From assembly GCA_963813715.1 (NCBI GenBank), contig CAWFAK010000006.1:50082-114081 (forward strand): a stretch of DNA of 64,000 nucleotides, in the 5' to 3' direction. Positions 45,151 through 61,085 of the stretch are shown here, one piece after another. Numbering within the stretch: position 1 is the stretch's first letter; each line of letters opens with the position of its first letter. The notes under the pieces were generated by a model. That model did not search any database. It was not told the origin of the DNA and was given only the letters and a program-made list of their open reading frames with translations. The translations under genes were made by a program, and so were the position numbers. The stretch is from an uncultured Planctomycetaceae bacterium. Lineage in GTDB: Bacteria > Planctomycetota > Planctomycetia > Planctomycetales > Planctomycetaceae.

Positions 45151-48100
45151 TCAGGCCCCCGCTCCGTGGCACTTCTTATACTTCTTGCCGCTGCCGCAGG
45201 GACACGGATCGTTGCGGCCGACCTTCGGCTGACGATTGTGAATTGGTTCGACGGCGGTCGCCTCGGGGCTGTGGCCTCCCTGGGTTTCGGTCACTTCGCC
45301 GTCGCTGCTGGTCATCGGAGCCGCTTCCGCGTGGTTGACGGCGGTGATCTCCCACAGCGAGCCGACGAAGGCCGGGCTTTCCTTTTCGATGCGGAAGATG
45401 GCCGACGTGACCTGTTGATCGACGCGGTCCCACATCGCCAGGAAGGTTTTGCGGCCCTCGCGCTTGTACTCGACCTTGGGGTCGAGCTGAGCGTACCCGA
45501 CCAGGCCAATCCCCGCGCGGAGATGGTCCATGAAATAGAGATGGTCTTTCCACGCGGTATCGAGGATTTCGAGAATCAGCGCCCGTTCCGTCTGGGCCAG
45601 CTCGGGGCGATACCGCGCGTCGTAAGCCTGCAGCACGCGGTTCTTGGCCGCTTCTTCGTCGAGCGGCTCGAGCTCGTTCGCATCGAGATTGAGGTGATAG
45701 TCCTGGCTCGCCCAGCGGGCCAGTTCGTTGAGCGTCTGGGAGCGGTCGGGCGAATTCTGCGGGGGGACGTGGCCGTTACGCTGCGTCTCCGCCTTGTGTA
45801 GGTACTCGTCGGCCTTGTCCAGCACTTCGCCGTTGACGAAGAACTTCTGGCTCGTCTCGCGGAGCAGACCTTCGATCTCGTTGCGGGGACGATTCTTGAC
45901 GTCGTCGACCGGCAGCGCGGCCTGGAACCGCTCGTTGGCCCAGCGGACGAGCCCCTCACGGTTGTACCGTTCGCCGCCGCCGCCCGGCCCCTCGGCCATG
46001 AAGTTCGTCATGCCAACGGAGACGGGGAACTCGACCTCCTTCTGGCGATAGAGGTCGTCGATCTTGCGGCGGACCAGCTCGACTGCCTCCTCGGGACCGC
46101 CCAGATCGGTGAAGTCTTCGGGCCGCATCTCCAGCGTAAGTTGCTGATGCAGCCAGCCGCACACCGATTTCGGGCCGAACTGCGGATCGAGCAGCACGTC
46201 GACCGGCGTGAAGTCGAAGCGGGCGATCGCCTCTTTGGCCCGCGGCAGCAGGTCGGCCAAGAGCGCGTCGCGGCCGATCTTCTTCAGTTCGCGATCATTC
46301 GTGTTGAGACCGTAGCGGACGTTGACGAACCGCGACAGCGCGAGCCAGTTCCAGTCGTTGGTGTCCTCGGCCTCGCTCGGCAGATCTTCCTCGATCTTCT
46401 CGGCAATGTCAGCCTCGGCCTGTCGGCCGGCTTCGTCGAGCAGGAATTCCTCCAGCCGCTGCCGGTCCATGCCGTCGACGGAGCGAGCGTCGACCTCGAT
46501 GCCCATCGAGTGCGAGGCCCAGCCGGCGATCGTTTCCCAGCGGTAGGCCGGCTCGAGCAGCTTGGGCACCATCAGCCGGATCTGCTTGTCGATCATGTCG
46601 AGAATCAGTTGCCGGCAATTTCCGCCTTCCAGAATCCGCTGCCGATACCTGTAGACCTGCTTTCTCTGCTCGTCCATGACTTCGTCATATTCGAGCAGGT
46701 GCTTACGCATGTCGGCGTGGCGCTCTTCCACTTTCTTCTCGGCGCCTTGGATCTGCCGGTTGACCATCCGGCTTTCGATGGCCTCGCCTTCCTGCATGCC
46801 GAGCCGAGTGAGAATGTTCTTCACAAAGTCGCCGGCGAAGATCCGCATCAGGTCGTCTTCGAGCGACAGGAAAAAGCGGCTGGAGCCGGGGTCGCCTTGC
46901 CGACCGCTGCGTCCGCGCAACTGCAGGTCGATGCGCCGTGCCTCGTGGCGTTCGGTGCCGATCACGTGCAGGCCGCCCGCTTCCGCGACCTTGCGCCCCT
47001 CCTCGACCATTCCCTCTTCTTTGCCGATTTTCGCCGTCAGCTCGTCCCAAACGACTTTGGGAACGTCGAGGCGGGACGCGTATTGATGGCGGAGCTGGTC
47101 CCACGCCATGTATTCGGGATTGCCCCCCAGGATGATGTCGGTGCCGCGGCCCGCCATGTTGGTGGCGATGGTGACGGCCGATTCGCGGCCGGCCTGGGCG
47201 ATGATTTCGGCCTCGCGCTCGTGATACTTGGCGTTCAGAGACCGCGTGCTTGATGCCAAAGCGGCCGATCTTGTCGCTGAGCAACTCGGACTTTTCGATC
47301 GACACGGTGCCGACCAGGATCGGGCGGCCCGTCTGGTGGACTTCGCGAATCTCGTTGACGACCGCATCCCACTTCTCGCGCTCGCTCTTGTAAATCACAT
47401 CCATGGTGTTGATGCGGCGGAGCGGCTTGTTCGTGGGAATGGTGACGACGTCGAGCTTATAGGTTTTCCAGAACTCGGTGGCCTCGGTCATGGCCGTACC
47501 GGTCATGCCGCCCAGCTTCTTGTAAAGCTTGAAATAGTTCTGCAGCGTGATCGTGGCCAGGGTCTGCGTTTCGGCCTTGATCGTCACGCCTTCCTTGGCT
47601 TCGACCGCCTGATGCAGACCATCGCTCCATTGGCGGCCTTCCATCTTGCGCCCGGTGAACTCGTCGACGATGATCACCGTCCCCTGTTCGACGACGTAGT
47701 TCACGTCGCGCTTATACAGGTAATGGGCCTTGAGCGCGTTATCGATCAGGTGCGGCCATTCCATGTTGCCGGCGGTGTAAAAGCTCTCCACGCCGGCGAG
47801 CTTTTCGGCCTCGCGCACGCCCGCATCGGTCAGGTTGCAGGTGTGCTCCTTCTCTTTCACTTCGAAGTGCACGCCCTTCTGCAGCTGCCGGGCGATGCGG
47901 TCGGCCTTGGGATACTTCGACGTGTCGTCGTGGGCGAAGCCCGAGATGATGAGCGGCGTTCGCGCCTCGTCGATCAGAATGTTGTCGATTTCGTCGACAA
48001 TCGCGTATTGCAGCGGGCGCTGGACCTGGATGTCCTTCGACGGCTTCATGTTGTCGCGGAGGTAATCGAAGCCGAACTCGTTGTTGGTGCCGTACGTGAT

Positions 48101-48709
48101 GTCGCTGGCGTAGGCAACCTTCCTCTCTTCGGAATCCATGTTCGCCTGAATGGCGCCGACGGTGAGCCCCAGGCCGAGGTACAGCGGCCCCATCCATTCC
48201 ATGTCGCGGCGGGCCAGATAATCATTCACCGTGACGACGTGCACGGAGCCGACAAGGCCGTTCAAGAACGCGGGCAGCGTGGCGACCAGCGTTTTGCCTT
48301 CGCCGGTGACCATTTCGGCAATCATCCCCTTGTGGAGGAAGTAGGCGCCGATCATCTGCACGTCGTAGTGCCGCATCTTGAGAAAGCGGCGGCCCGCCTC
48401 GCGCACCGCTGCAAAGGCGTCGGGCAGAATGTCGTCAAGCGTTTCGCCGGCAGTCAGCCGGGCGCGGAGCTTCGTCGCCGTTTGCTTCAGCTCATCGTCC
48501 GACAGTTTTTGCCAGTCGGCTTCTTGCGAATTGATGCGGTCGAGGATCGAGCCGGGGATGACCTTCGAGGTCCCCCGTCTTTCATCCCGGTCGAAGCCGA
48601 ATTTGCGGATACGGCGGCGGTTGGACGAGCCAAAAATGGCCGTAATGAACCGTTCGATCCACCCGGTGAATACCGTGAACCAGTCGCCGATGCGATCAAG
48701 AAAGTCCAT
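45151..48709 (-). CDS. secA: Preprotein translocase ATPase SecA (frameshift near 47240)
   Basis: [78 protein letters not shown]. Confidence 0.97.
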
Positions 48710-52164: not shown

Positions 52165-52743
52165 CTATTTGAGTTCCGTGACGGCGTGAGGGCCAGGAGT
52201 CCCGATTGGCTGTTTCCCCTGGACATCCAGCGCGAAGTTCCAGTCGGTTTTTCCGGGCTGTTCGATATCGATCTTGAACTGCGAATTTTCGGCATTCTTG
52301 TCGGGGTCGTTGTACAAGTTCATCAGTCCGTCCGGGCCCCTTAAGCTTTTCCCCCGCTTCGAGGCCATCAAGCCTGGAGTCAATTCCGCAAACGACACGA
52401 CATACGACCCGGTCGGCACGCCGTCGCCTCGGTCGTACGTGCTAAACTCGAACTCGCCATCGCTCTTACAGATTGCTTTCAGGAGAACATCGCCGCCGTT
52501 CGGATTCTTTGGGTCAGACAACATGACGACCAGCACCTGCTTTGGGTACGCCTCCCGCGGCGACTTGCCGTCAATGGTGACGTGGCCGGCAAATTTGGCG
52601 ACGCTCGCTTTCTGCAATTTGAGGTCCTTCATTTGCTGATCCATCGCGGTGTCCACACCGTTGGATTTTCCACAGCCGAGATTGAGCAGCGCCAGCATCG
52701 CAACGCCAGCGGCCATCCACGTCGGATGGATTTTCCGAAGCAT
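52165..52743 (-). CDS. Putative lipoprotein typical of DUF1559 partner genes (carboxypeptidase-regulatory-like)
   Basis: Lipobox LNLGC, GHVTIDGK, DGEFEFSTY..GDGVPTGSYVV, LYNDP. Confidence 0.7.
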   Translation of the reverse strand: MLRKIHPTWMAAGVAMLALLNLGCGKSNGVDTAMDQQMKDLKLQKASVAKFAGHVTIDGKSPREAYPKQVLVVMLSDPKNPNGGDVLLKAICKSDGEFEFSTYDRGDGVPTGSYVVSFAELTPGLMASKRGKSLRGPDGLMNLYNDPDKNAENSQFKIDIEQPGKTDWNFALDVQGKQPIGTPGPHAVTELK

Positions 52744-52842
52744 ACGTACATCCTCGGGGCAGAACATTTCAGCTGCCCTCAAGCGGTCTCGCGCGGACGG
52801 ACTTTGAAACGAAGCCGGACGACTTCGAAACCGCATTGGAAT

Positions 52843-52881
52843 CAAGAACAAGAAACGGGGCCGCACAAATTGCGGCCCCGT
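52843..52881 (-). terminator. Intrinsic terminator or stabilising hairpin downstream of the DUF1559 gene
   Basis: ACGGGGCCGCA-5 nt-TGCGGCCCCGT with a TTCTTGTTCTTG tail on the minus strand. Confidence 0.65.
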
Positions 52882-52931
52882 CAACGCTTTCCGGTTTTCC
52901 AGTCGTCAACGACAAGCCGGGTTCTATGGGA

Positions 52932-54098
52932 CTAGAATTGCGAGTCGATCACTGGCCGGCCGCCGCGGAATGTAATTAAGCGGACGAACGGGACGAGTCC
53001 AACGTTCTCGCTGACCATGTGGGCCGAGCCGTCGCAAAACGCAAAGCCACACGATCCCGGATGGAAGCTGTAAAGGCCAAGATCGAGTTGGTTTGTGCAG
53101 TTGATGAAGCAAACGGGCGGCGAGCTGGGGCCAGTGTAGCCGGGCGAAGCGAGGCCGCTTGTAGTCGAGCCATAAAGCGACATGTATCCATTATCCAAAC
53201 AGGCCCAGCAGCCGCCGGCGTTCACTTTGGGTGTGGCTCCGCTTGTGAAATTGGTTGGCACCAAACAGGCCAAAGGCTTTTTCACGCCGCGCACCCAGAG
53301 GTCGGGACGTCCGGCCAATTCTGCGCAGAAAATCGTCGTCGAAGTACCGTCCGTGATCATATCAATCGAAACCGTCTCCCGGACGTTGTTTGTCATGACC
53401 CCTTCACAACACTTCTGGTCGCACTTGTTGACGCAACCGGTGGTGGCAAGACGATACGCACACTGAAGTCCCGGTTTGCAGAATGTGTTGATGGCCGTGT
53501 AGTCGCTGCCCCCTGCCCAGTAGTGCGGGAAGAGGGGGACTCCTGCTTGACACAAGAGACAACCAACAAGGCTCGTCTCAATAAAGGGATTCACGCTGCG
53601 CGGTGACGAGGGGCAGGCATAACCAGGAATGACGGCGGCCGCCGGCCGTTGCAGCCCCGGTGGCACCAGCGCCGGACAGCAGCCGCCCGAGTTCGGCTGA
53701 CAGTATTTTGGGAGACCGACGATACAGGAACAAAGCGGCGAAAAGATCGGGCCGTTCATGCAGATTTGCCTGTAGACGGTGTTCGCTTCCATGAACGGAA
53801 GCAGCCGCTCGCCCCAATTGTGGATGTCGATATTGTCTGGACAACAATTTCCGCAGGCGAAGCCGAGCGACTTGAGAACCGGACCGACGTTCAGCAAGAA
53901 GGATGCAGGAAAGAAATTGTTGACGTCATGATAATTGTGCGCCGCCAGCGCCATCTGCTTGAGATTGTTGCGGCACTGGGTCCGCCGCGCCGCCTCGCGG
54001 GCCGCCTGCACTGCCGGCAGCAAGAGGGCGATCAGCACCGCAATGATGGCGATGACCACCAGGAGTTCAATCAGCGTAAACCCTCGCCGACTTCGCAT
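52932..54098 (-). CDS. DUF1559 prepilin-type N-terminal cleavage protein, Cys-rich
   Basis: [43 protein letters not shown], and H-X9-DG motif [14 protein letters not shown]. Confidence 0.93.
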
Positions 54099-54861
54099 GT
54101 TCTTGATCCTTTCACAGCCCGGAGGAAAGAGATAGAGACAAACCTTCGCAACAAGAACGAAGAATGATTGCGAACAGAGTCGCAATCTCAAACTCACGAG
54201 TCGAAAGACTCAAAGATGGGAGGCACGCGCATGCCATACTGTTCGAGCGTCCAGTTTAGAGAAACGCCCGTTGATCGGTGCAAACACTGAGCATTCTGGC
54301 GAGTTTATGGAAGAGTGCAAAGGGGGAAAACGCTTATTTCCCATGGATTTACGCTGTTTAATCTTGCCGGCCTGGATGGGGCGAGGCGGCGGCGGCTCCT
54401 GAAAACGGTGGCGGCGGAGCGGCCTGGCTGAGCAGGAGCTGAGGAAAAAGGGGCGACCCGGCGCGCCCGGGCAACCGGCTACCCTGTCGCAACGCGAGAG
54501 TTCCGCCGGTCGGCCATCGCCCGGCAAGAAGCGATCGCCGCGGCGAACAGCAGAATTGCCCGATCGGCCGCGAGGCGACCTTACCCGATCGCAGCAAAAC
54601 AGCCGCTCAGCGGGGCTGCACTCCCCAGACTTACTGCCAAAAGAAGCAGGCGCAAACGCGACGCGGAACGCACGCACCGTGAGCGGAGAGTCCGGGTTCG
54701 TAATCCGCCAGCCTACGTCGTTGCCGCGAGGCCAAGTCGGCCCGACGGCCTCGAGAGCCAGCTGCCGAAATTAGTCAGACAGCCGCCGGACCGATGGCAA
54801 CCGCGAAAAAAGTCGCGGCGGGGCGGTCCCGTCGCCTGTGCCGGCCCCGTGCACGCGTCAC

Positions 54862-55216
54862 CTAGTGGCATGGCACTCCGGCGTCGCTGCCGTCAAAGCA
54901 GGTGAGGTTGCCGCCAGGACAGTCGAAGGACCCGTGATGCCACCACAGTGACCGCTTGCACCCCTCCGGGTGTGGATTGCCGAAAAGCCGTGCCCGTACG
55001 TGCAGCTGCAGGACCGTTACCTGGCCGCCGGTGCTGCCGCAATTGCACGCCTGAGCGTTGTGCTGCAACATGCGACGCTGCCGTCTGGCAACTGCATGCA
55101 TACATCGGAGGATCACAGACGAATAGCCAGCTGGGGCGTACTCGCCCGGCGTTCGCAATTTGCGACTTCTCGAAACGCCCTCTGGATACGGCATGCATCT
55201 GGGGTGGCAAATTCAT
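54862..55216 (-). CDS. Cys-rich peptide, copy 1 (putative RiPP-like precursor; multiple indels)
   Basis: MNLPPQMHAVSRGRFEKSQIANAGRVRPS-WLFVCDPPMYACSC...LTCFDGSDAGVPCH*. SD GAGGT. Homologous to copies 2 and 3. Confidence 0.65.
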
Positions 55217-55305
55217 CGCTGGACCTCAATGGTTTGGGCCGGAGCCTACTGAACGGCAAGGCTTCGGGCTGGAAGGAACGCGGCATCGATGCCCGCGCAC
55301 ATCAC

Positions 55306-55651
55306 CTAATTGCATTGCACTGCGTTGTCGTTGCCGTCAAAGCAGGTGATGGCGTCCTTCGAACAGTCTACGGGGCCGGAGTTATTCCAGTGACCGACTG
55401 CACCGCCCGGGTGTGGATGACCATTGCCAATCCCGTGCGTACATGCCGCAGGACCGTTATTTGGACCGCCGACATCGCCGCACGAGCACTCCCCAGCTGT
55501 CGGCGCAACATGCGACGCTGAGATCCGGGCAGCTGCAGGCAACTTGGTCGCACACGAATTACAGCGTGGAAACCTCGTCCGGCCGAAGCCACAAACGAGA
55601 GTTTTCAAAACGCCCTCTGGAAACGGCTCGCATTTGAAGTGGCAAATTCAT
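55306..55651 (-). CDS. Cys-rich peptide, copy 2 (multiple indels; possibly a pseudogene)
   Basis: MNLPLQMRAVSRGRFENSR...FVCDQVACSCPDLSVACC...CSCGDVGGPNNGPAACTHG...ITCFDGNDNAVQCN*. Confidence 0.65.
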
Positions 55652-55846
55652 GGGCTGGACCTCATTGGTTTCGGTTCGATCGATTCACGTCTGTGAAAGG
55701 ATAGTTCTTCGAAGCCGTGCGGACCTCAATTCCAGTTGAGAACGCGGCGCGTTGAAAGGGCCAATCCCACGCTCATCGACACGTTGGCTCGAGCCGGAGT
55801 CGTGCTCCGATGGCTTGTTGGCAACCGAACGCATTACCAAATTCGC

Positions 55847-55974
55847 CTCGTCCTTGGAACGCAACTCACGCGAAGGTCGGCCTCCCTCGCATCAGCGCAA
55901 CATCGCACCGCACAAGGATACGGGAGGCTAAGCTTCCGGAACGTGCGTCCCCAAGAAGACGGCCGCGGTACGAG
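55847..55974. repeat. Degenerate MITE/REP-like inverted repeat element
   Basis: Left arm CTTGGAACGCAACTCACGCGAAGGTCGGCCTCCC pairs imperfectly with right arm GGGAGGCTAAGCTTCCGGAACGTGCGTCCCCAAG; outer ends CTCG/CGAG. Confidence 0.5.
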
Positions 55975-56041
55975 GGAATCCTGTTCGGCGCGATAAGTCG
56001 CTCTCAGCGAGCGCTCCCCCTCAATTCCCGTCTTCGGCAGT

Positions 56042-56371
56042 TTAACTAATGCAACCCACATCTACCCCGGTTGCTGTCATAGCAGTGTACTCGTCGTGGC
56101 AGGCGTCACAGTCGGCCTCTTGCATGGTGGTGTGGGTGGGTACCCCAGCATTTCCCAAGACCGCCTGAGCAGTGGATCCCGTGGGACTGCCGCAAACACT
56201 GCTGACCTGTGTGCAACACGAGACGCTGCCGTCCCGCTGGCAGCTGCATGCAGCCATCGGCGGATCACAGAAGAACATCCAGCTTGGAAAGACTTGCCCG
56301 GCCGAACTCACAATTCGCGACTTCGGCAAAGGCCCTCTGGAAACTGCACACATTTGGAGTGGCAAATTCAT
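56042..56371 (-). CDS. Cys-rich peptide, copy 3 (open frame, 109 aa)
   Basis: MNLPLQMCAVSRGPLPKSRIVSSAGQVFPS-WMFFCDPPMAACSCQRDGSVSCC...; 3' DNA TGCTATGACAGCAAC matches TGCTTTGACGGCA(G/A)C in copies 1 and 2. Confidence 0.7.
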   Translation of the reverse strand: MNLPLQMCAVSRGPLPKSRIVSSAGQVFPSWMFFCDPPMAACSCQRDGSVSCCTQVSSVCGSPTGSTAQAVLGNAGVPTHTTMQEADCDACHDEYTAMTATGVDVGCIS

Positions 56372-56623
56372 GGCTGGACCTCGTTGTTTGGGCGTCGTCT
56401 ATTTAACTGCAAGGACTTTCGACCGGAAAAAAGCACTCGATAATACGGCGTCAAACCTCGCGGCCGCAAAGTTTTTCAAACCACGGGTCAGCAACATGTG
56501 GTGGTTTTTCGCGCGACGACCAGCGATCGATGCGGGCTACCGCCGGCCCAAAGAGGATCGCCAGCGAATCACATCGGAAGACATGTTCGACGATCCTCTG
56601 GTTGGAGCATGCAGACAAGGCGT

Positions 56624-59600
56624 TCAGCGTAAGTTCTAGCTGGACGAAAACCCACGGAGCTGAAGTACGGCCGCTCGCATTCGCCATCGCAACGACGGCC
56701 GGAACTCAGCAGGGTAGCACTGAGGAACCCCCCGCCGCGCATCACACATTTGTCTGCCGCATTGACCGGCGCAATCGCCGGAGCGTCGTCGAAAAGCTTT
56801 CTGTTCCGTTCTAGACCGATTCCCGAGTTAATGCACATTTCGCCGGCGTTCCCTAGCATGTCGAACAACCCCAAATCGTTCGGTTCCAAAGTCCCAATGG
56901 GCCATGCGTGATAGTCGCTGTTAGCCAGCAAACCGCGCATAATGCGGTAATAGCTGATCGCTCGCCCCGTAGTAACGGCTCGTCACTGTCCCCGCTCGAC
57001 ACGCGAATTCCCATTCTGCTTGCGTCGGCAACCGATAGCCCTTCAGTTCCCAGAATTTGTCCTTCGCCTTCATTCCCGGACCATAGACCCCGTCCTTGGG
57101 GTCGTAGCACCATTGGTTTCTGGGAATCTTCTCCCGCTCGCTCAACCAATCGCAGTACTGCGCCGCCTCGTACCAATTGATGCCAATCTGAGCGGAGTCG
57201 TCTGTACGGACGTAATCGCGAAACTGAGGGGCATTTGCCGGATCGAAACCTTTTATCGCCTGTTGGAAGGTGCGGTATTGGACCTTGGTGACTTCATGCG
57301 CTGAAATTGCGAACGTGCGACCAATGCGAATTCGGACCTGAGTGTCCGTTGGCGAGTAACCGGCGTCGGATTTCGTCGTTCCCATCAAAAACTCACCACC
57401 AGCCATAATCACGTAAGTTTGTTTCTGGCTGTTGATGAACCAGCTTCGCGTGCTACTCGGACGTGCGGGCCTGCAACTGACTGTCAGCGGACGTTCAAGC
57501 CTCTCTAAGATCGGCATCGAGCGGTTTGTCTTGCCCCCATTTTCGTAGTAGCCATTCGGAGGCACCATGGAGTCCGGGATCGGGTTCGTTTTCGTAGACA
57601 GCCAGCAGCTTCGGGATGAGCGGTTCCCGCTGTGCGGAGGGCAATTGAGCGTCTGTAAACTGCCCGAGGGTTAGCACGAGCGCCCTGCGGATCGTCATGT
57701 CGGCCTCGGTCTCCCGGCGTTGCAGGATGGCCTGCGGGTCGCCCCCGCGTGGACTGAGCCAATGAATGATGTAACTGCGAACCCTCGGGTCGCGGCTCGC
57801 CTTGAGCAGCGGCCAAACGGGCTCTCCCGCTCCGAAACGTAGCAGAGCGACCGCCGCGTTTGCCTGCCGTCTTCGCCAGAACCTCCTTTTCGTCCTCGTT
57901 CGCGTCCGCAGGAGATGTTTTCGGCGACTTCTTGGGTCGCTCGCGTGATCGCCTCGTCCTTGTGGGCGGAGAGCTTGCCAAAGATCACGGGGAACTGGAA
58001 CTGCTCGCCGTCGGCCAGCAGGTTGAACAATCCGTCAGGACTTTCGGCCGCAAATTCCGCGAGTGTCTCCGTTGCGAAACGGCGAGACGGTTTTTCTTGA
58101 TTGGGGTCGCGATAGATCTTGCCGAGCGATTCGATCAACTGGCCTTTTGCCGGCCGCAGGGCTTCGCGAAACGCGACGTGATCCGACGCTTCCAGCGTCA
58201 CCAGGTGATTCGAGATTAGCGCGTTGATCTGACTCCAACGCTTGTCGTCAGGCGCATAGGTCGCCAGCGCACAAGCGGCTTGAAACCGTTGCTGCAGCTC
58301 CCGCTGCGGGTCCAGTGCGGCGATCCACAGCGGCTCGGCGACCCGCTCTTTGTAGGGCAAGAGAGAGTCCCGCACGACGGTAAAGCGAGCGGGCGACTTC
58401 CACACCATCAAGCCGTCGCGCAGATTGTCCAGCTCAGTTTGATCCACCGGAAGGATCGCCAACGCCAGGTTCAGCTTCTCATTTGACCCCTGCGGGGCTT
58501 CGTCAAACTGCCTCCGAAGCAATGGGTCGGCCCAACGGCGATATCCATCGAGCTCCGGGATGATGGCGGGAACCTCCGCTATGTCGGCCGACTTGAGCCG
58601 TTTTACGAGAGACCCCGCCTGGAAGCGGCCGTTGATCTGCCAACCTGCGAAGAGTGCGACGATGAAGATCAATCCCGCGACGGTACCTCGAATGCCGTGA
58701 AAGCGTCCGGCACGCCTCATCATTTTCCGTTGCGGCCCGGTCCACCTCTTGTGGTCCGTCAGCAAGCGAATCTTGACGTCTTCCCATAGCGAGGGCAGAT
58801 GCCGAGTCGTTGGCTTGGCGTTCCAGACGCCCGCTCGTTCTGCCAACAACATCTCTGTCCGGCCTCGCCGAGTTTCCCTCTGCTTTTCCGTCAGCCAGTC
58901 CCGCAGCGAAGGGACCAGGTAGTCGTGGGTCAACTGATAGTACTTCGGGCCCAACACGGCTTTACTGTCCGCCATGTCGTCAGCGTCGTGCCCCTCAGGG
59001 TCAGTCGGGGTGATCAGCCGAAGCTCGCCATCCAGGATGCGGATCAAATCCTCGAAGTCCTTCGGACGACTCAAATAGCCAGAAACCTCCAAGAGTTCCT
59101 GAAACGAGCGCATGTGGCCCTTGATGTCGGCGCCGCTTTCGGGCAACAGCGCTTTCAGCACGGCACGAGCCGCCCTTTGATGCAGGCGGTGCCTTGGGTT
59201 GGCAGCCGGCGAACTGAATGTCTCTTCGAGAAAGGTGACGCCGACCCCCTCCGTGCCGCCCAGGGCTTCGAGCGAAGCGGGACTCCACGTTTTGCCTTTG
59301 ATCATCTCGGCAAACAGGGCCAAGCGAACGCAGATGACCTTGCCCTCTTGCGAAAGACCGGAGACGGCCTGATCCAGAAATCGTTGTTCGGCCGGCGTGA
59401 TTTCCTTTCCGTCCTCCGGCAAGGCCCCGTAGGCCCGCCCATAGGCTTTCAGCACGCGCTGGGCATGACGGACCTCGAACAAATCGACCGCGGCGAAGTT
59501 CTGCCCTTGGACCAGCTCGATTTCGAGATCTCGCAGAAATCGCGTGACTGCCATCCAGAAGTCGTCCCGGACCATTACCAGGCACTGGACTCCCCCGCCG

Positions 59601-61085
59601 TCGCATTGTCGGAGGGCTTGGACCAACTCCGTGTTCTCGTCTTTGCCTTTGCTGTGCAGCCACTGCTCGAATTGGTCCAGGACGATCAGCACCTTGCGGC
59701 CGTGCCCGATCCCCTGCCCCTGCCGCAGAGCCGCCAGCGTATCTTTCAAATTGAGGTTGGTCGGCAAAGCCGGACATCGCTTGCGGAGTCCGTGAAGCAG
59801 CCGAGTTTCGGTCTCGTCGCCCGTCGCCTCGATGTACACGGGCACAACATGGTTCGCGAGCCGCGGCAGCAGGCCCGCCTTCACTAAAGACGATTTTCCA
59901 CAGCCGGACGGGCCGTAGATCAAACCAACCGGAAAGGTTTCGTCAGGGTCGGTTTCTTCGATTCTGGTCTTCCAGAAGCGGATGCTGTCAGGCAGCCCGT
60001 CTCGGTCTCGGGGGCCGGGCAACAGCTCCAGGAAAAAATCGGCATCACGAGCGTCGAAGGATCGCAAGCCCTTGGGCACGATCCGGATCATCCGGCTCTC
60101 AGAAGGCGTTCGGGCGGACGGCGTGTCGACCGCGACGGGCTTCTCGGAGACGGCTTGATCGACCGGCGGTTGCCTGCCCGAGCCGGCGATGTTGCGATTG
60201 CGCCGCGAGAAAATCGTTGAGATCGTGGGCGAGGTCCGTGGCGGTCGTGTAACGTTCCGAGGGTCGTTTCGCCAACGCCTTCAGGCAGATTCGTTCCAAT
60301 TCCTTGGGAATGGTGTCGTCGAACTGACGTGGTGGGCGCGGTTCTTGGATCGTGATTCGTTCCAGCATCTCCACCTTGGTGTCGGCACGAAACGGATGAC
60401 GGCCGACCACCAGCTCGTAGAGCACGATCCCCAGACTAAAGATGTCGCTCCGGCCATCGACTCGGTGACCTTCACTGCGGGCTTGCTCCGGGCTCATGTA
60501 GGCCGGGGTGCCCGCAAACCTGGGTCCCTTGCCGATATCCTCTTCCCGCAAGGCGAGGCCGAAATCGACGAGATACGGCTTGCCATCCGCGTCGATGAGA
60601 ATGTTGCCCGGCTTCACGTCTCGATGCACGAGCTGGTTGCGGTGGGCGTAATGTAGCGCGTCGGCCACAGTTGCCACGAGTTGCACAGCGTGGCCCAAAG
60701 CGAGGCGAGACTCCTTCATCTTCCTCGCCAGGTCGGTCCCCTCGATGTATTTTGAGACGACGAAAAAGGGATGCTCAGCCGTGCCGCCGACGTCATAAAC
60801 GGGGACAATGTGCGGATGCTCGAGATTGGCGACGGTGCGAGCTTCGGCCAGATAGGGTTCGGCATCCTCGGGTCGGGCGACCCGATCGGGATGCGGCACT
60901 TTAACGGCCACGGGTCGACTCAATTGCTCGTCCTGCGCAAGGTAGACGAGGCCGAAGCCCCCCTTGCCGAGAAACTTCTCAACTCGATAGCGTCCGACTC
61001 GTTCCGGCAGGACGGCGGGCGCACTCGAGATGGCAGGAGCCGTCAGCCCCTGAATGGTGCGGGTGACCGTTTCGCCTTCGGACAT
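56624..61085 (-). CDS. Multidomain Ser/Thr kinase - P-loop (STAND-like) NTPase - helical repeats - FGE/CLec-fold domain (several frameshifts)
   Basis: LGKGGFG, HRDVKPGN, DFGLA, GTPAYMSPEQ; GPSGCGKSS, LDQFEQW; YRLPTQAEWEFACRAG, GLFDMLGN, GFRPARTY. The stop is either the shifted TGA at 56624 or the in-frame stop at 56569. Confidence 0.85.

Follow-up and report, generated by a model that had tools for sequence, protein, structure and literature searches.

Cyanobactin pathways of Cyanobacteria are the closest described counterpart of the system reported here. They combine a PatA-type S8 protease, which carries a C-terminal DUF (PatG_D/PatG_C), with several precursor genes per cluster whose cores are hypervariable. 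The precursors share an N-terminal L-P-x-Q-x-x-(P/A)-V-x-R box, reading N-I-L-P-H-Q-G-K-P-V-L-R in the canonical precursors that we fetched, and are cut at a site that follows the pattern (V/L)-x-(A/P)-S; the published consensus for PatA is G(L/V)E(A/P)S (PMC10885120). A YcaO heterocyclase, a LAELSEE box, a PatG-type macrocyclase and an AYDG follower belong to the same pathway, and each precursor holds one to four cassettes of a few residues. In the portion of PMC4259220 that deals with the conserved DUF, no binding to the linear substrates tried was detected and its function was not known.

The planctomycete system shares the protease and its DUF, the multiple precursor genes, the hypervariable core, the leader box and the cleavage site. 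It differs in host phylum and lacks the YcaO heterocyclase, the LAELSEE box, the PatG-type macrocyclase and the AYDG follower. Its precursors have one core of 38–94 residues, far larger than any cyanobactin core, and, unlike in cyanobactin clusters, most precursor loci are found beside Ser/Thr kinase genes and not with the protease. Modules in Chitinophaga, Methylotenera and Rivularia (L086/L087, L081 and L073) are similar in having the leader box, a P-S site, Cys-rich cores of tens of residues and no cyanobactin enzyme other than a PatA-type protease. In those modules, however, the peptide genes come after that of the protease, whereas the planctomycete ones come before it or at other places in the genome; the Cys framework is also different. 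Only the planctomycete loci show pairing with kinases, the modules of other phyla adjoining TPR, caspase-like or AAA_35 genes.

Three paralogous units in the window

The window is a 64,000-nucleotide stretch of contig CAWFAK010000006.1 (here C6) from the 7.49-Mb genome of an uncultured Planctomycetaceae bacterium (here G000). It contains three paralogous minus-strand units (Table 1) with DNA identities of 70–76%; no fourth DNA-level copy was found in the genome. Every unit starts with MNLP(L/P)QMxAVSRG, is Cys-rich and has no N-terminal hydrophobic stretch, which agrees with a sequence-only reading of this DNA that had described the leader start and the lack of a hydrophobic signal peptide. 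That reading also proposed three paralogous genes of about 110 codons, counted after indel correction. The paralogy stands, but the intact genes do not: as assembled, none of the three is free of frame breaks, and the indel caveat is needed for all of them because family-like parts change frame in each.

Table 1. Features of the peptide array and its neighbors (positions in the window)
Feature	Position	Strand	Remarks
DUF1559 / N-terminal methylation-motif protein, 421 aa	52932..54197	-	downstream neighbor
Copy 1	54862..55216	-	family-like parts spread over three frames
Copy 1, leader frame	54893..55216	-	MNLPPQMHAVSRG...GRVRPS, then WLFVCDPPMYACSC
Copy 1, C-terminal piece	54862..55194	-	third frame, ending TCFDGSDAGVPCH
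GAGG, copy 1	55224..55227	-	
Copy 2	55306..55651	-	leader ORF 55559..55651, TAA after 30 codons
Copy 2, C-terminal two thirds	55306..55608	-	another frame; closest to copy b of short-read contig L021
GAGG, copy 2	55660..55663	-	8-nt spacer
Copy 3 (first transcribed)	56042..56371	-	open 109-codon ORF: MNLPLQMCAVSRG...GQVFPS, then Cys-rich core
Copy 3, His-rich (HPHHH) and C-Y-D segment	56064..56198	-	other frame than the ORF, internal TGA
Copy 3, leader	56282..56371	-	30 codons, up to predicted PatA-type site V-F-P-S
GAGG, ribosome-binding-like, copy 3	56379..56382	-	7 nt before ATG
Receptor-like Ser/Thr kinase - nSTAND1 NTPase - FGE-like (lectin-fold) gene	56569..61085	-	upstream neighbor

Copies 1 and 3 have box, site and initial Cys motifs in frame; copy 2 retains only the box. 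Further downstream the frame is lost in all three. Copy 3 holds the family frame for only 65–75 codons or so, the last third of its ORF falling outside it, and the off-frame segment was matched by intact relatives in tblastn (frame 1 versus frame 2; E = 4.8e-7 for P0006 and 1.5e-5 for P0007). On the alignments and the PatA consensus (PMC10885120), cleavage of copy 3 would expose WMFFCDPP as the new N-terminus. A 1-nt and a 2-nt gap disrupt the cleavage-site region of copy 2, where the invariant Pro-Ser is not visible even when the frames are followed. In copy 1 the leader frame is succeeded by a family-like piece in a second frame and by the C-terminal piece in a third. Compared with L021, copy 1 resembles the fourth copy in its 3' part (79% identity) and the third in its 5' part (72%), so that it may have arisen by recombination or by the collapse of two copies into one. 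A search of 54600–56700 gave neither a sigma-70-like promoter nor an intrinsic terminator.

A family of small Cys-rich peptides

Intact family ORFs of 69–124 aa occur in many sources, and short-read contigs L021–L023 carry intact genes of 96–117 aa. A search among 1.84 billion representatives returned 20 family proteins at E≤0.001, and the family alignment comprises 35 members. These share the box M-x-L-P-L-Q-M-x-A-V-x-R, followed some 18 residues on by G-x-V-x-P-S/A and then by a hypervariable core with 6–18 Cys in the framework C..CxC..CC..CxC..C. Long forms have an additional His-rich stretch and two to four more Cys; the short forms are without the His-rich part. Pairwise identity falls from 79% in residues 1–12 to 55% up to the invariant Pro and 34% in the core (21% when Cys are left out), and the hypervariable cores are set between flanks that are 95–96.5% identical.

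The strong DNA-level conservation of the box among the three window copies could mean that it is an RNA or DNA element without coding function and that the reading frames are accidental. This can be rejected on the codon pattern of 27 distinct leader DNAs, and we assign it only the slightest probability. Four different codons are used at each of L3, P4, A9, V10 and R12, and 22 of the 27 have GAGG 7–8 nt before the start. That residues are kept through synonymous changes, behind such a motif, shows that the leader is translated. The intact ORFs likewise speak against a non-coding element, as does the lack of any Rfam match at E≤1 in 54000–57000.

Pfam and NCBIfam returned no match at E≤1 to any of the four peptide ORFs of the window, and 25 family members yielded only two single, unrelated matches at E≤10. 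The family profile matched no PDB sequence at E≤10, and the top ESM Atlas scores (0.75) led to no named cluster. Pattern searches confirmed 3 of 13 matches in genome contigs, all from G002 and G003 records, and 4 of 212 in metagenomes. Across the phylum, two of 301 genomes matched: G000 itself and a marginal case (E = 6.6e-4, with an internal TGA) in which a motif scan found no leader. Titles and abstract openings in the open literature contained no such planctomycete cyanobactin-type system, and the passage concerned in one of the papers (PMC7750434) gives only a BGC count. On these sequence comparisons the family is an undescribed, genus-restricted group of small Cys-rich peptides.

Comparison with cyanobactin precursors

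The V-x-P-S site of the family agrees with the PatA consensus. Direct profile comparison (hhalign) with canonical cyanobactin precursors gave the expected register at a probability of 1.8% (P = 0.028), which is not significant, and cyanobactin-precursor models in NCBIfam and Pfam did not match the family. The same leader is found in small genes adjacent to PatA-type proteases in Chitinophaga, Methylotenera, Rivularia and an uncultured cyanobacterium. The family aligns with these non-canonical precursors (set A7) at a probability of 86% (E = 4.9e-6, 31 columns), and A7 aligns with the canonical precursors at 92% (E = 5.6e-7, 20 columns); part of the similarity to A7 is built in because the set was picked by regular expressions requiring part of the motif. 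The link from the family to canonical precursors is thus only transitive, by way of the PatA-adjacent forms. The LAELSEE box is present in all seven canonical precursors fetched and in none of the 35 family members.

The proposal that these units bear a cyanobactin-type leader and a PatA-type site is supported by the site consensus together with the protease linkage and the NCBIfam and PDB matches given below. An echo of AYDG had also been suspected near the C-terminus. T-C-(Y/F)-D is indeed frequent in long forms, but A-Y-D-G does not occur and no PatG-type macrocyclase was found; this suggestion is not supported.

Linkage to a PatA-type protease

In the related genome G003 the protease gene (L014:10345-12297) encodes Peptidase_S8, PatG_D and PatG_C domains and scores 536 bits against the NCBIfam PatA/PatG model TIGR03895 (cut-off 421). 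Among solved structures it is closest to PagA and PatA, both N-terminal proteases of cyanobactin pathways (E = 8e-77 to 4e-67; PagA 8e-77, PatA about 1e-67); the PatG macrocyclase reaches only 5e-38 and the PatG DUF 2.4e-45. The G000 enzyme (C7:1017574-1019563) is 54–67% identical to that of G003. As assembled it spans at least three frames, and no single piece attains the TIGR03895 cut-off, the simple sum being about 474 bits. This is the only PatA/PatG-family locus in G000; neither a PatG-type macrocyclase nor a second PatA/G gene was found there.

Immediately before the protease gene, and in its orientation, stand short peptide genes: three in G003, three (broken) in G002 and one, intact and of 69 aa, on contig C7 of G000. 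Adjacency is confined to these short forms and does not extend to the window array; no peptide gene was found within 1–1.8 kb upstream of the protease in G001, G004, G005, G011 and G027. Among the 12 genomes of the genus the protease occurs in G000–G005 and G011, the peptides in G000–G005, and neither in G006–G010. Peptides are thus present in 6/7 protease-bearing genomes and 0/5 others, although genomes of a single genus are not independent; the protease without peptide (G011) comes from a genome that is 67% complete. The predicted association with a PatA/G-like protease is therefore seen both as adjacency in three genomes and as co-occurrence. The window itself was correctly read as having no protease, and processing in trans, as then supposed, is plausible because G000 encodes both the protease and a short precursor on C7. 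No YcaO (PF02624) match exists in G000 (82.6% complete), which fits the earlier expectation that azolines are not formed.

Complex prediction for the G003 protease and its own precursor gave a score of 0.55 (best control 0.01), with runs agreeing in at least 64% of contacts and a partner pLDDT of at least 53. The passing mark is reached by 116/157 solved complexes and 2/215 mismatches, but this score lies in a band where passes are often wrong: at 0.60 or below, passes comprise only 18/157 solved complexes plus both mismatches. Part of the score may also be memory, since solved PatG–peptide complexes exist. The model gives weak support to binding between protease and precursor.

A PapB-like rSAM/SPASM gene adjoins the protease in G000 and G002, an arrangement that, with a leader and a Cys-rich precursor, recalls ranthipeptides/SCIFF. 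It scores 121 bits against a family cut-off of 340 and lies far below every family cut-off. We rejected it as a maturase: the gene is present in the peptide-less genomes G006, G007, G009 and G010 and was not found in the peptide-bearing G004 and G005, so that, in contrast to ranthipeptides, no rSAM/SPASM maturase travels with the precursors.

Annotation pipelines already assign proteases of planctomycete MAGs to the PatA/PatG family, their substrates so far being unannotated "hypothetical proteins" without a family model; the present family would be a substrate family for them. If so, a cyanobactin-type leader and protease may serve Cys-rich mini-proteins of 40–90 residues in Planctomycetota without heterocyclase or macrocyclase. 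Bacteroidota, Proteobacteria and Cyanobacteria contain related forms. The leader box accompanies the protease and its DUF where the other cyanobactin enzymes are missing, and this offers a testable idea on the roles of the leader N-terminus and of the DUF.

Frame breaks: consensus error or decay

Because the assembly is indel-prone, long-read consensus error and real decay are inseparable here, and we judge the chances of the two to be about even. Taken at face value, the indels and stops would make the window copies, and perhaps the kinase-STAND gene, decaying pseudogenes, leaving the C7 precursor as the only functional one. At least five to six frame changes, a TAA and a TGA fall within about 1 kb, and stop codons, being substitutions, are a rare product of consensus error; copy 2, moreover, is without the invariant Pro-Ser. 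Relative to short-read contig L021, the flanking genes have six frame-shifting indels in 7.7 kb (DUF1559 one, sulfatase four, phosphodiesterase none, SecA one), compared with 17 in 4.46 kb of the kinase-STAND-FGE gene, whose dN/dS of 0.41 is the highest of five genes (others 0.04–0.22). Short-read contigs, too, contain a frame-broken fourth copy.

Errors are nevertheless evident. One extra base at about 47238 splits SecA, which is intact in G002 and L021, and the G000 assembly reaches 82.6% completeness with no more than 18 contigs. G002 has two contig versions of the locus with 100% identical flanks, the peptide genes being intact in one and broken in the other, which indicates consensus trouble in a strain-variable region. 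Ten sequencing runs gave partial matches, with shares of at most 0.15, and none was from RNA. What could be placed from four of these, 151-nt contigs and two pieces of relatives, nowhere spans the frame breaks. Death of the array in G000 is thus a serious contender, to which we lean slightly less than to the contrary; in this one genome the window array may be non-functional.

Core, fold and location

An AF2 model shows a disordered leader and a four-strand core (pLDDT about 80). Foldseek found nothing in the PDB better than E = 2.3, its rows being Cys-rich modules of class C GPCRs, EGF and granulin, and none of 48,161 chains reached Z≥2 in VIA-align. Most family copies have no signal peptide; in one copy, seen on two independent short-read contigs, a Sec-type signal peptide replaces the leader, which favors a role outside the cytoplasm.

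The CxC and CC motifs and the HxHHH stretches of long forms would suit cytoplasmic, metallothionein-like metal-binding proteins whose N-terminus is a regulatory or degradation tag, as would the rarity of signal peptides and the PatA-type protease, for which no signal or membrane anchor is predicted. Yet hypervariability, tandem arrays and leader–protease linkage are not metallothionein traits, the His-rich part is missing from short forms, a version with a Sec signal exists, and no metallothionein family was matched in Pfam or NCBIfam. We consider such a role improbable.

Pairing with receptor-like kinases

The kinase-STAND-FGE gene ends 198 nt from copy 3, on the same strand. It is split into four ORFs in the window and forms a single 1486-codon ORF in L021. 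Of 15 peptide loci examined, 11 have a Pkinase domain next to the peptide gene (the window, L037, L014, L016, L017, L021/L022, L050, L051, L055, L058 and, by homology, L013); there are 80 Pkinase matches in the 7.49 Mb of the genome. Besides Pkinase, the peptide-linked kinases carry WD40, nSTAND1, FGE-like or TPR domains, and a single hydrophobic segment follows the kinase or STAND part, suggesting a receptor topology with the sensor domain outside. The sensor end is hypervariable, the last 75 or so residues being 35–42% identical as against 85–100% elsewhere in the protein. Among solved structures, the FGE-sulfatase domain comes closest to the non-enzymatic TvpA (E = 4e-20), PvdO and PorK, with matches to true FGEs at about 1e-9. 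Its C-terminal R-G-G-S segment, in which we take the catalytic Cys pair of true FGEs to lie, has no Cys. A diversity-generating retroelement was considered for the hypervariable end and discarded, the genome holding no template-like repeat, only paralogous domains.

Kinase domains next to peptide genes in 11/15 loci, and cores rich in Ser, Thr and Cys, might indicate that the kinases modify the peptides by phosphorylation and elimination, as in class III/IV lanthipeptides. However, they are not fused to a lyase and LanC-like cyclase: Pfam matched neither, and only WD40, nSTAND1, FGE-like or TPR domains stand beside the kinase. The receptor topology suggested by the hydrophobic segment also argues against modification, and we regard it as very improbable.

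Linked hypervariable pairs of ligand and receptor kinase are known from plant SCR/SP11-SRK and from agr or com pherotypes. The planctomycete loci may be likened to these in the tight linkage of a small hypervariable Cys-rich peptide gene to a receptor-like kinase whose sensor end is hypervariable too. The likeness is one of analogy only, as the kinase is bacterial (Hanks-type) and maturation would be by a cyanobactin-type protease. Kinase pairing and joint hypervariability suggest a system of peptide signaling or recognition; we know of none of this kind in Planctomycetota.

Proposed maturation and role

We favor, as reasonably probable in its entirety, the explanation that the window units are long-form cyanobactin-like precursors, cleaved in trans by a PatA-type protease to a linear Cys-rich product and paired with a kinase. 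The single subtilisin encoded on C7 (S8, PatG_D and PatG_C) would bind the leader and cut after P-S, with neither heterocyclization nor macrocyclization of the precursor. The product would be a mini-protein of stacked beta-hairpins, possibly disulfide-bonded, that probably acts outside the cytoplasm, and the upstream kinase-STAND-lectin-fold gene may be its regulator or receptor.

Secreted antagonism offers a different role for the same product. Bacteriocin- or toxin-like mini-proteins in an arms race would account for hypervariable cores inside 95–96.5% identical flanks, tandem multi-copy arrays, leader-plus-protease architecture and the copy with a Sec signal, and the TPR, caspase-like or AAA_35 neighbors of PatA-type modules in other phyla are in keeping with it. 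The kinases would then be merely neighboring regulators, which leaves their pairing unexplained; furthermore, no conserved immunity, transporter or lysis gene lies beside the arrays, and Pfam, NCBIfam and PDB show no similarity to known bacteriocin or toxin families. Antagonism is unlikely on balance, if well short of negligible.

A more specific version of the favored explanation would make the hypervariable peptide a matured, exported ligand of the adjoining receptor-like kinase, sensed by a WD40 or lectin-fold domain outside the cytoplasm whose binding end is likewise hypervariable. It would follow that the conserved PatA/PatG DUF docks onto the L-P-x-Q-x-x-(P/A)-V-x-R box. Signaling and docking taken together are speculative, and we think it doubtful that both hold. 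Were the ligand reading true, planctomycetes would possess strain-specific self/non-self or pherotype signaling by way of a borrowed cyanobactin leader protease.

On the other side of the array, the DUF1559 gene is syntenic in all relatives of the window locus; between G000 and G002 its protein shares just 57% identity, compared with 94–98% for the flanking genes.

A Cys-rich peptide family with a translated leader

A word-indexed search matched copy 3 of the window array to three "hypothetical proteins" of 119–124 aa, and a profile search run against 1.84 billion representatives returned 20 proteins with E≤0.001, of which 15 reached ≤1e-10 and 3 reached ≤1e-30. Scans of whole genomes and contigs added members from five other genomes of the genus (G001–G005), from metagenome contigs L021–L024 and from contig C7 of the window's own genome (G000). 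No Pfam or NCBIfam model matched any family member, and there was no match in Rfam. Short forms (69–98 aa) share the framework C..CxC..CC..CxC..C; long forms (96–124 aa), to which the window copies belong, carry an extra His-rich stretch and 2–4 additional Cys. When 35 members are aligned, no variation is seen at M1, P4, Q6, one Pro and two Cys, and conservation reaches at least 90% at L3, L5, A9, V10, R12 and five more Cys. Members compared in pairs are 79% identical over residues 1–12 and 55% as far as the invariant Pro; core identity is 34%, falling to 21% once Cys are left aside.

The conserved residues of the leader are each encoded by 3–4 different codons among 27 distinct leader DNAs, 22 of which have GAGG 7–8 nt upstream of the start codon. 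This synonymous variety, together with the GAGG, rules out the conserved box as an RNA or DNA element and indicates that selection is on the translated peptide.

Positions of features discussed in the text
Feature	Location	Strand	Remark
Copy 3	window 56371-56042	minus	first in transcription direction
Copy 2	window 55651-55306	minus
Copy 1	window 55216-54862	minus
Fourth array copy	L021:10469-10738; L022 from 4351		identical in both contigs; ends after short-form-like core
Usual C-terminal part of fourth copy	L021:10753-10869		another frame
Ser/Thr kinase-nSTAND1 NTPase-FGE-sulfatase-like gene	window 56569-61085	minus	upstream of array, four ORFs
Same gene, intact	L021:4333-8793		one 1486-aa ORF
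Hypervariable FGE-like end	L021:7975-8790; L016:5981-9676 (C-terminal ~75 residues); window ~56569-56800
DUF1559 protein	window 52932-54197
239-aa ORF	window 52165-52884
SecA	window 45151-48709	minus	two overlapping ORFs; extra base near 47238
SecA, intact	L015:7369-10941		G002
G002 versions of array locus	L015 (C13:1-15000); L016 (C11:143000-162900)
Three short-form genes	L014:9347-10171	as protease	G003
650-aa protease	L014, 174 nt downstream of short-form genes	as short-form genes	G003; Peptidase_S8 + PatG_D + PatG_C
Protease orthologue	G000:C7:1017574-1019563		sole one in G000; 54-67% identical; split over at least 3 frames
Radical-SAM/SPASM gene	G000:C7:1019944-1021265; L038:12351-13664 (G002)	convergent to protease
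FHA + LuxR-type HTH gene	L014:12543-13187		G003
Mu-type transposase	L017:2182-3756		G002; rve + Mu-transpos_C_2
Acidic-core leader-bearing genes	L086:13654-13890; L087:12958-13152; L081:8511-8702		Chitinophaga, Methylotenera

Broken frames in the window: assembly error or decay

The sequence-only reading described three paralogous genes of about 110 codons. Three paralogous leader-bearing units are indeed present, each starting MNLP(L/P)QM.AVSRG, but in none of the three is the frame unbroken, so that no copy is a clean gene of that length. They are the only DNA-level copies in the whole 7.49-Mb genome (blastn; mutually 70–76% identical) and align with a mean column identity of 72% and many 1–5-nt gaps. 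The leader frame of copy 1 agrees with intact relatives as far as ...WLFVCDPPMYACSC; family resemblance then continues in a second frame (PDGSVACC...) and, for the C-terminal piece (...ACNCGSTGG ... TCFDGSDAGVPCH), in a third. Copy 2 meets a TAA at codon 31, preceded by a stretch that a 1-nt and a 2-nt gap have scrambled, and resumes with FVCDQVACSCPDLSVACC, the remainder (ECSCGDVGG ... TCFDGNDNAVQCN) being in another frame. Copy 3 has an open ORF of 109 codons that loses family resemblance from about codon 65–75; its His-rich and C-Y-D parts (...GTHPHHHARG..., ...VHCYDSNRG...) occupy a different frame with a TGA inside, and match the intact relatives P0006 and P0007 at E 4.8e-7 and 1.5e-5, respectively.

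The G000 assembly has a completeness of 82.6% in 18 contigs, and its two closest peptide-bearing relatives are MAGs of uncultured Planctomycetaceae bacterium. That it contains indel errors is marked by SecA, which is split by a single extra base in the window and is a single intact ORF in the related genome G002 and also in L021, a metagenome contig from short reads. Taking L021, which is 95–96.5% identical to the window across the flanks, as reference, we counted frame-shifting indels and estimated dN/dS for the flanking genes.

Frame-shifting indels and dN/dS in flanking genes, window versus L021
Gene	Indels	Length (nt)	dN/dS
SecA	1	3015	0.04
Phosphodiesterase	0	1587	0.22
Sulfatase	4	1947	0.14
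DUF1559	1	1178	0.19
Kinase-STAND-FGE	17	4455	0.41

The array itself has at least 5–6 frame changes and two stop codons within ~1 kb. This density is well above the background of the flanking genes, which argues that the copies have really decayed. Against this stands the locus in G002, of which there are two contig versions with downstream flanks 100% identical, one with two intact peptide genes and the other broken: the pattern expected where strain mixing in a hypervariable region affects a long-read consensus. (The two versions could themselves be strain heterogeneity or a haplotig.) No reads spanning the frame breaks were found in public sequencing runs. We regard decay and assembly error as about evenly balanced; the three window copies may be non-functional in this assembly, and the kinase-STAND-FGE gene is possibly decaying together with them.

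A PatA-type protease accompanies the peptides

In G003, another genome of the genus, three short-form genes are followed by a protease scoring 536 bits on TIGR03895, "PatA/PatG family cyanobactin maturation protease" (NCBIfam; cut-off 421). Its best solved relatives are N-terminal cyanobactin proteases (4H6W, E 8e-77; PatA entries, ~1e-67), and its C-terminal half is matched by the PatG DUF structure (2.4e-45). Because these PagA-type and PatA matches are far stronger than that to the PatG macrocyclase domain (only 5e-38), the enzyme is, judged by homology, PatA-like and not a macrocyclase. Directly upstream of the G000 orthologue lies an intact 69-aa short-form gene (MHLPLQMTAVPR...VRPN...), and in G002 three broken leader-bearing ORFs have the same arrangement.

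Co-occurrence with a PatA/PatG-like protease had been proposed as a check on the sequence-only reading, and it is seen among the 12 genomes of the genus: peptides are present in G000–G005, all with the protease, neither was found in G006–G010 (completeness 86–98%), and G011 (completeness 67%) has the protease without peptides found, a pattern that counts as support and not as a statistic because the genomes are kin. No peptide gene was found within 1–1.8 kb upstream of the protease in G001, G004, G005, G011 or a further protease-bearing genome, G027; where these have peptides, the loci are elsewhere in the genome. G000 has no second PatA/G-family locus and no match to YcaO. Complex prediction with the G003 protease and its own precursor gave a score of 0.55 (best control 0.01), with runs agreeing in at least 64% of contacts, partner pLDDT of at least 53 and no interface reported. 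Of 157 solved complexes, 116 pass the mark used, as do 2 of 215 mismatches; at scores ≤0.60 the passes come from only 18 of the 157 and from both of these mismatches. The prediction leans slightly towards a protease–precursor pairing.

A radical-SAM/SPASM gene adjoins the protease in G000 and G002. Its nearest counterparts are PapB-type maturases, with a score of 121 bits that misses the cut-off of 340 and every other cut-off; it was ruled out as part of the system, since its occurrence across the genus does not go together with that of the peptides. Downstream of the G003 protease gene is a regulator gene whose FHA domain would fit control by a neighbouring Ser/Thr kinase.

Relation to cyanobactin leaders

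Cleavage is described as following G(L/V)E(A/P)S for PatA-like enzymes and preceding AYDG for PatG-like ones (PMC10885120); the family's G-x-V-x-P-S/A site has the (V/L)-x-(A/P)-S core in common with the former. Leaders for comparison came from the genomic surroundings of genes related to a cyanobacterial PatA homologue. Canonical precursors at these loci start MNKKNILPHQGKPVLR... and carry LAELSEE and G-V-D-A-S and S-Y-D-G repeats. Non-canonical small genes right after a PatA-type gene were found in Chitinophaga (MNLPIQAKPVYR...GGVTPS, then 6 Cys), Methylotenera (MLLPKQNAVERI...), Rivularia (MKLPIQAQPINR...GVKPQ, then 6 Cys) and an uncultured cyanobacterium.

In profile–profile comparison the family matched the non-canonical set from Met1 to P-S (probability 86%, E 4.9e-6, 31 columns), although some of this similarity is built in, because the set was chosen by regular expressions demanding part of the N-terminal box while leaving free the P-S site and, for part of the genes, (P/A)-V-x-R. 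The non-canonical set in turn matched the canonical precursors (92%, E 5.6e-7, 20 columns). Directly, family and canonical precursors did not match significantly (1.8%, P 0.028, 15 columns); their top alignment pairs LPLQM.AVSR with LPHQGKPVLR, the register expected. The earlier claim that these are orphan precursors, processed in trans, whose leader and protease site are related to those of cyanobactins is supported, the protease of G000 being on contig C7 and the array on C6; the proposed echo of AYDG in C(F/Y)DG is not. Because several defining tests fail (the system has neither macrocyclase nor heterocyclase, and its cores are very large), we class it as a variant related to cyanobactin pathways and not as a member of them.

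At the Chitinophaga and Methylotenera loci some leader-bearing genes have extremely acidic, Gly/Asp/Glu-rich cores that are not Cys-rich. Signalling- or conflict-type neighbours recur beside PatA-type genes of other lineages: VWA proteins and kinase-WD40 in G027 (L041, G027:C129), TPR and caspase-like proteins in Chitinophaga (L086) and an AAA_35 NTPase in Rivularia (L073).

Proposed maturation and product

AlphaFold2 (short form, 35 aligned sequences) predicted a disordered leader (pLDDT 52–65) and a core of four beta-strands (pLDDT ~80); structure searches gave no significant match. In the fourth array copy, seen in two independent short-read contigs, a Sec-type signal peptide (positively charged at its start, then hydrophobic for 20 residues and followed by V-R-A) replaces the MNLPLQ leader ahead of the usual ...FICDPPMFACSCPNNSVACC... 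core. Such a copy is an indirect sign that the core acts outside the cytoplasm, and would favour disulfides over intracellular metal binding. As the most likely mechanism, and one to which we give a reasonable degree of credence, a single PatA-type protease guided by the leader would cut the precursor after V-x-P-S and release what we infer to be a linear, hypervariable, Cys-rich beta-hairpin mini-protein, with neither azoline formation nor macrocyclisation.

Neighbourhood and receptor-like kinases

Downstream of the window array are a DUF1559 protein, two sulfatase-superfamily genes and SecA, and the neighbourhood is syntenic in G002, G003 (L013) and L021/L022. A Pkinase domain adjoins the peptide genes at 11 of the 15 peptide loci examined (window, L037, L014, L016, L017, L021/L022, L050, L051, L055, L058 and, by homology, L013); at L038 the kinase is ~5.5 kb off, and L023, L024 and L052 are too short to judge. 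Pkinase is matched 80 times in the 7.49-Mb genome, so that chance is an unlikely explanation for this adjacency. By simple hydropathy analysis, the kinase-WD40 proteins have one hydrophobic segment that immediately follows the kinase domain, and in the 1486-aa protein one follows the STAND module, hinting that these proteins are built like receptors whose WD40 or lectin-fold domain would lie outside.

Nearest to the FGE-like domain are PvdO, PorK and, at E 4e-20, TvpA, a variable protein with a lectin fold; true FGEs match at ~1e-9. Between L021 and G002 the last ~75 residues of the domain have 35–42% identity, against 85–100% for the remainder of the protein; the peptide array is likewise only 70–80% identical between strains whose flanks are 95–96.5% identical. 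TvpA, the best solved relative, is a variable protein of a diversity-generating retroelement; no template repeat of such an element was found in the genome. The kinase pairing and the fact that peptide and sensor end are both hypervariable, otherwise unexplained, motivate the idea that the peptides are ligands of the adjoining receptor-like kinases, which we nonetheless consider improbable.

The variable island reaches beyond the peptide genes: between G000 and G002 the DUF1559 protein is 57% and the next ORF (239 aa) 40% identical, and genes further downstream are 94–98% identical. In G002 a solitary short-form gene adjoins the kinase-WD40 gene of L017, ~2.3 kb beyond which lies a Mu-type transposase.
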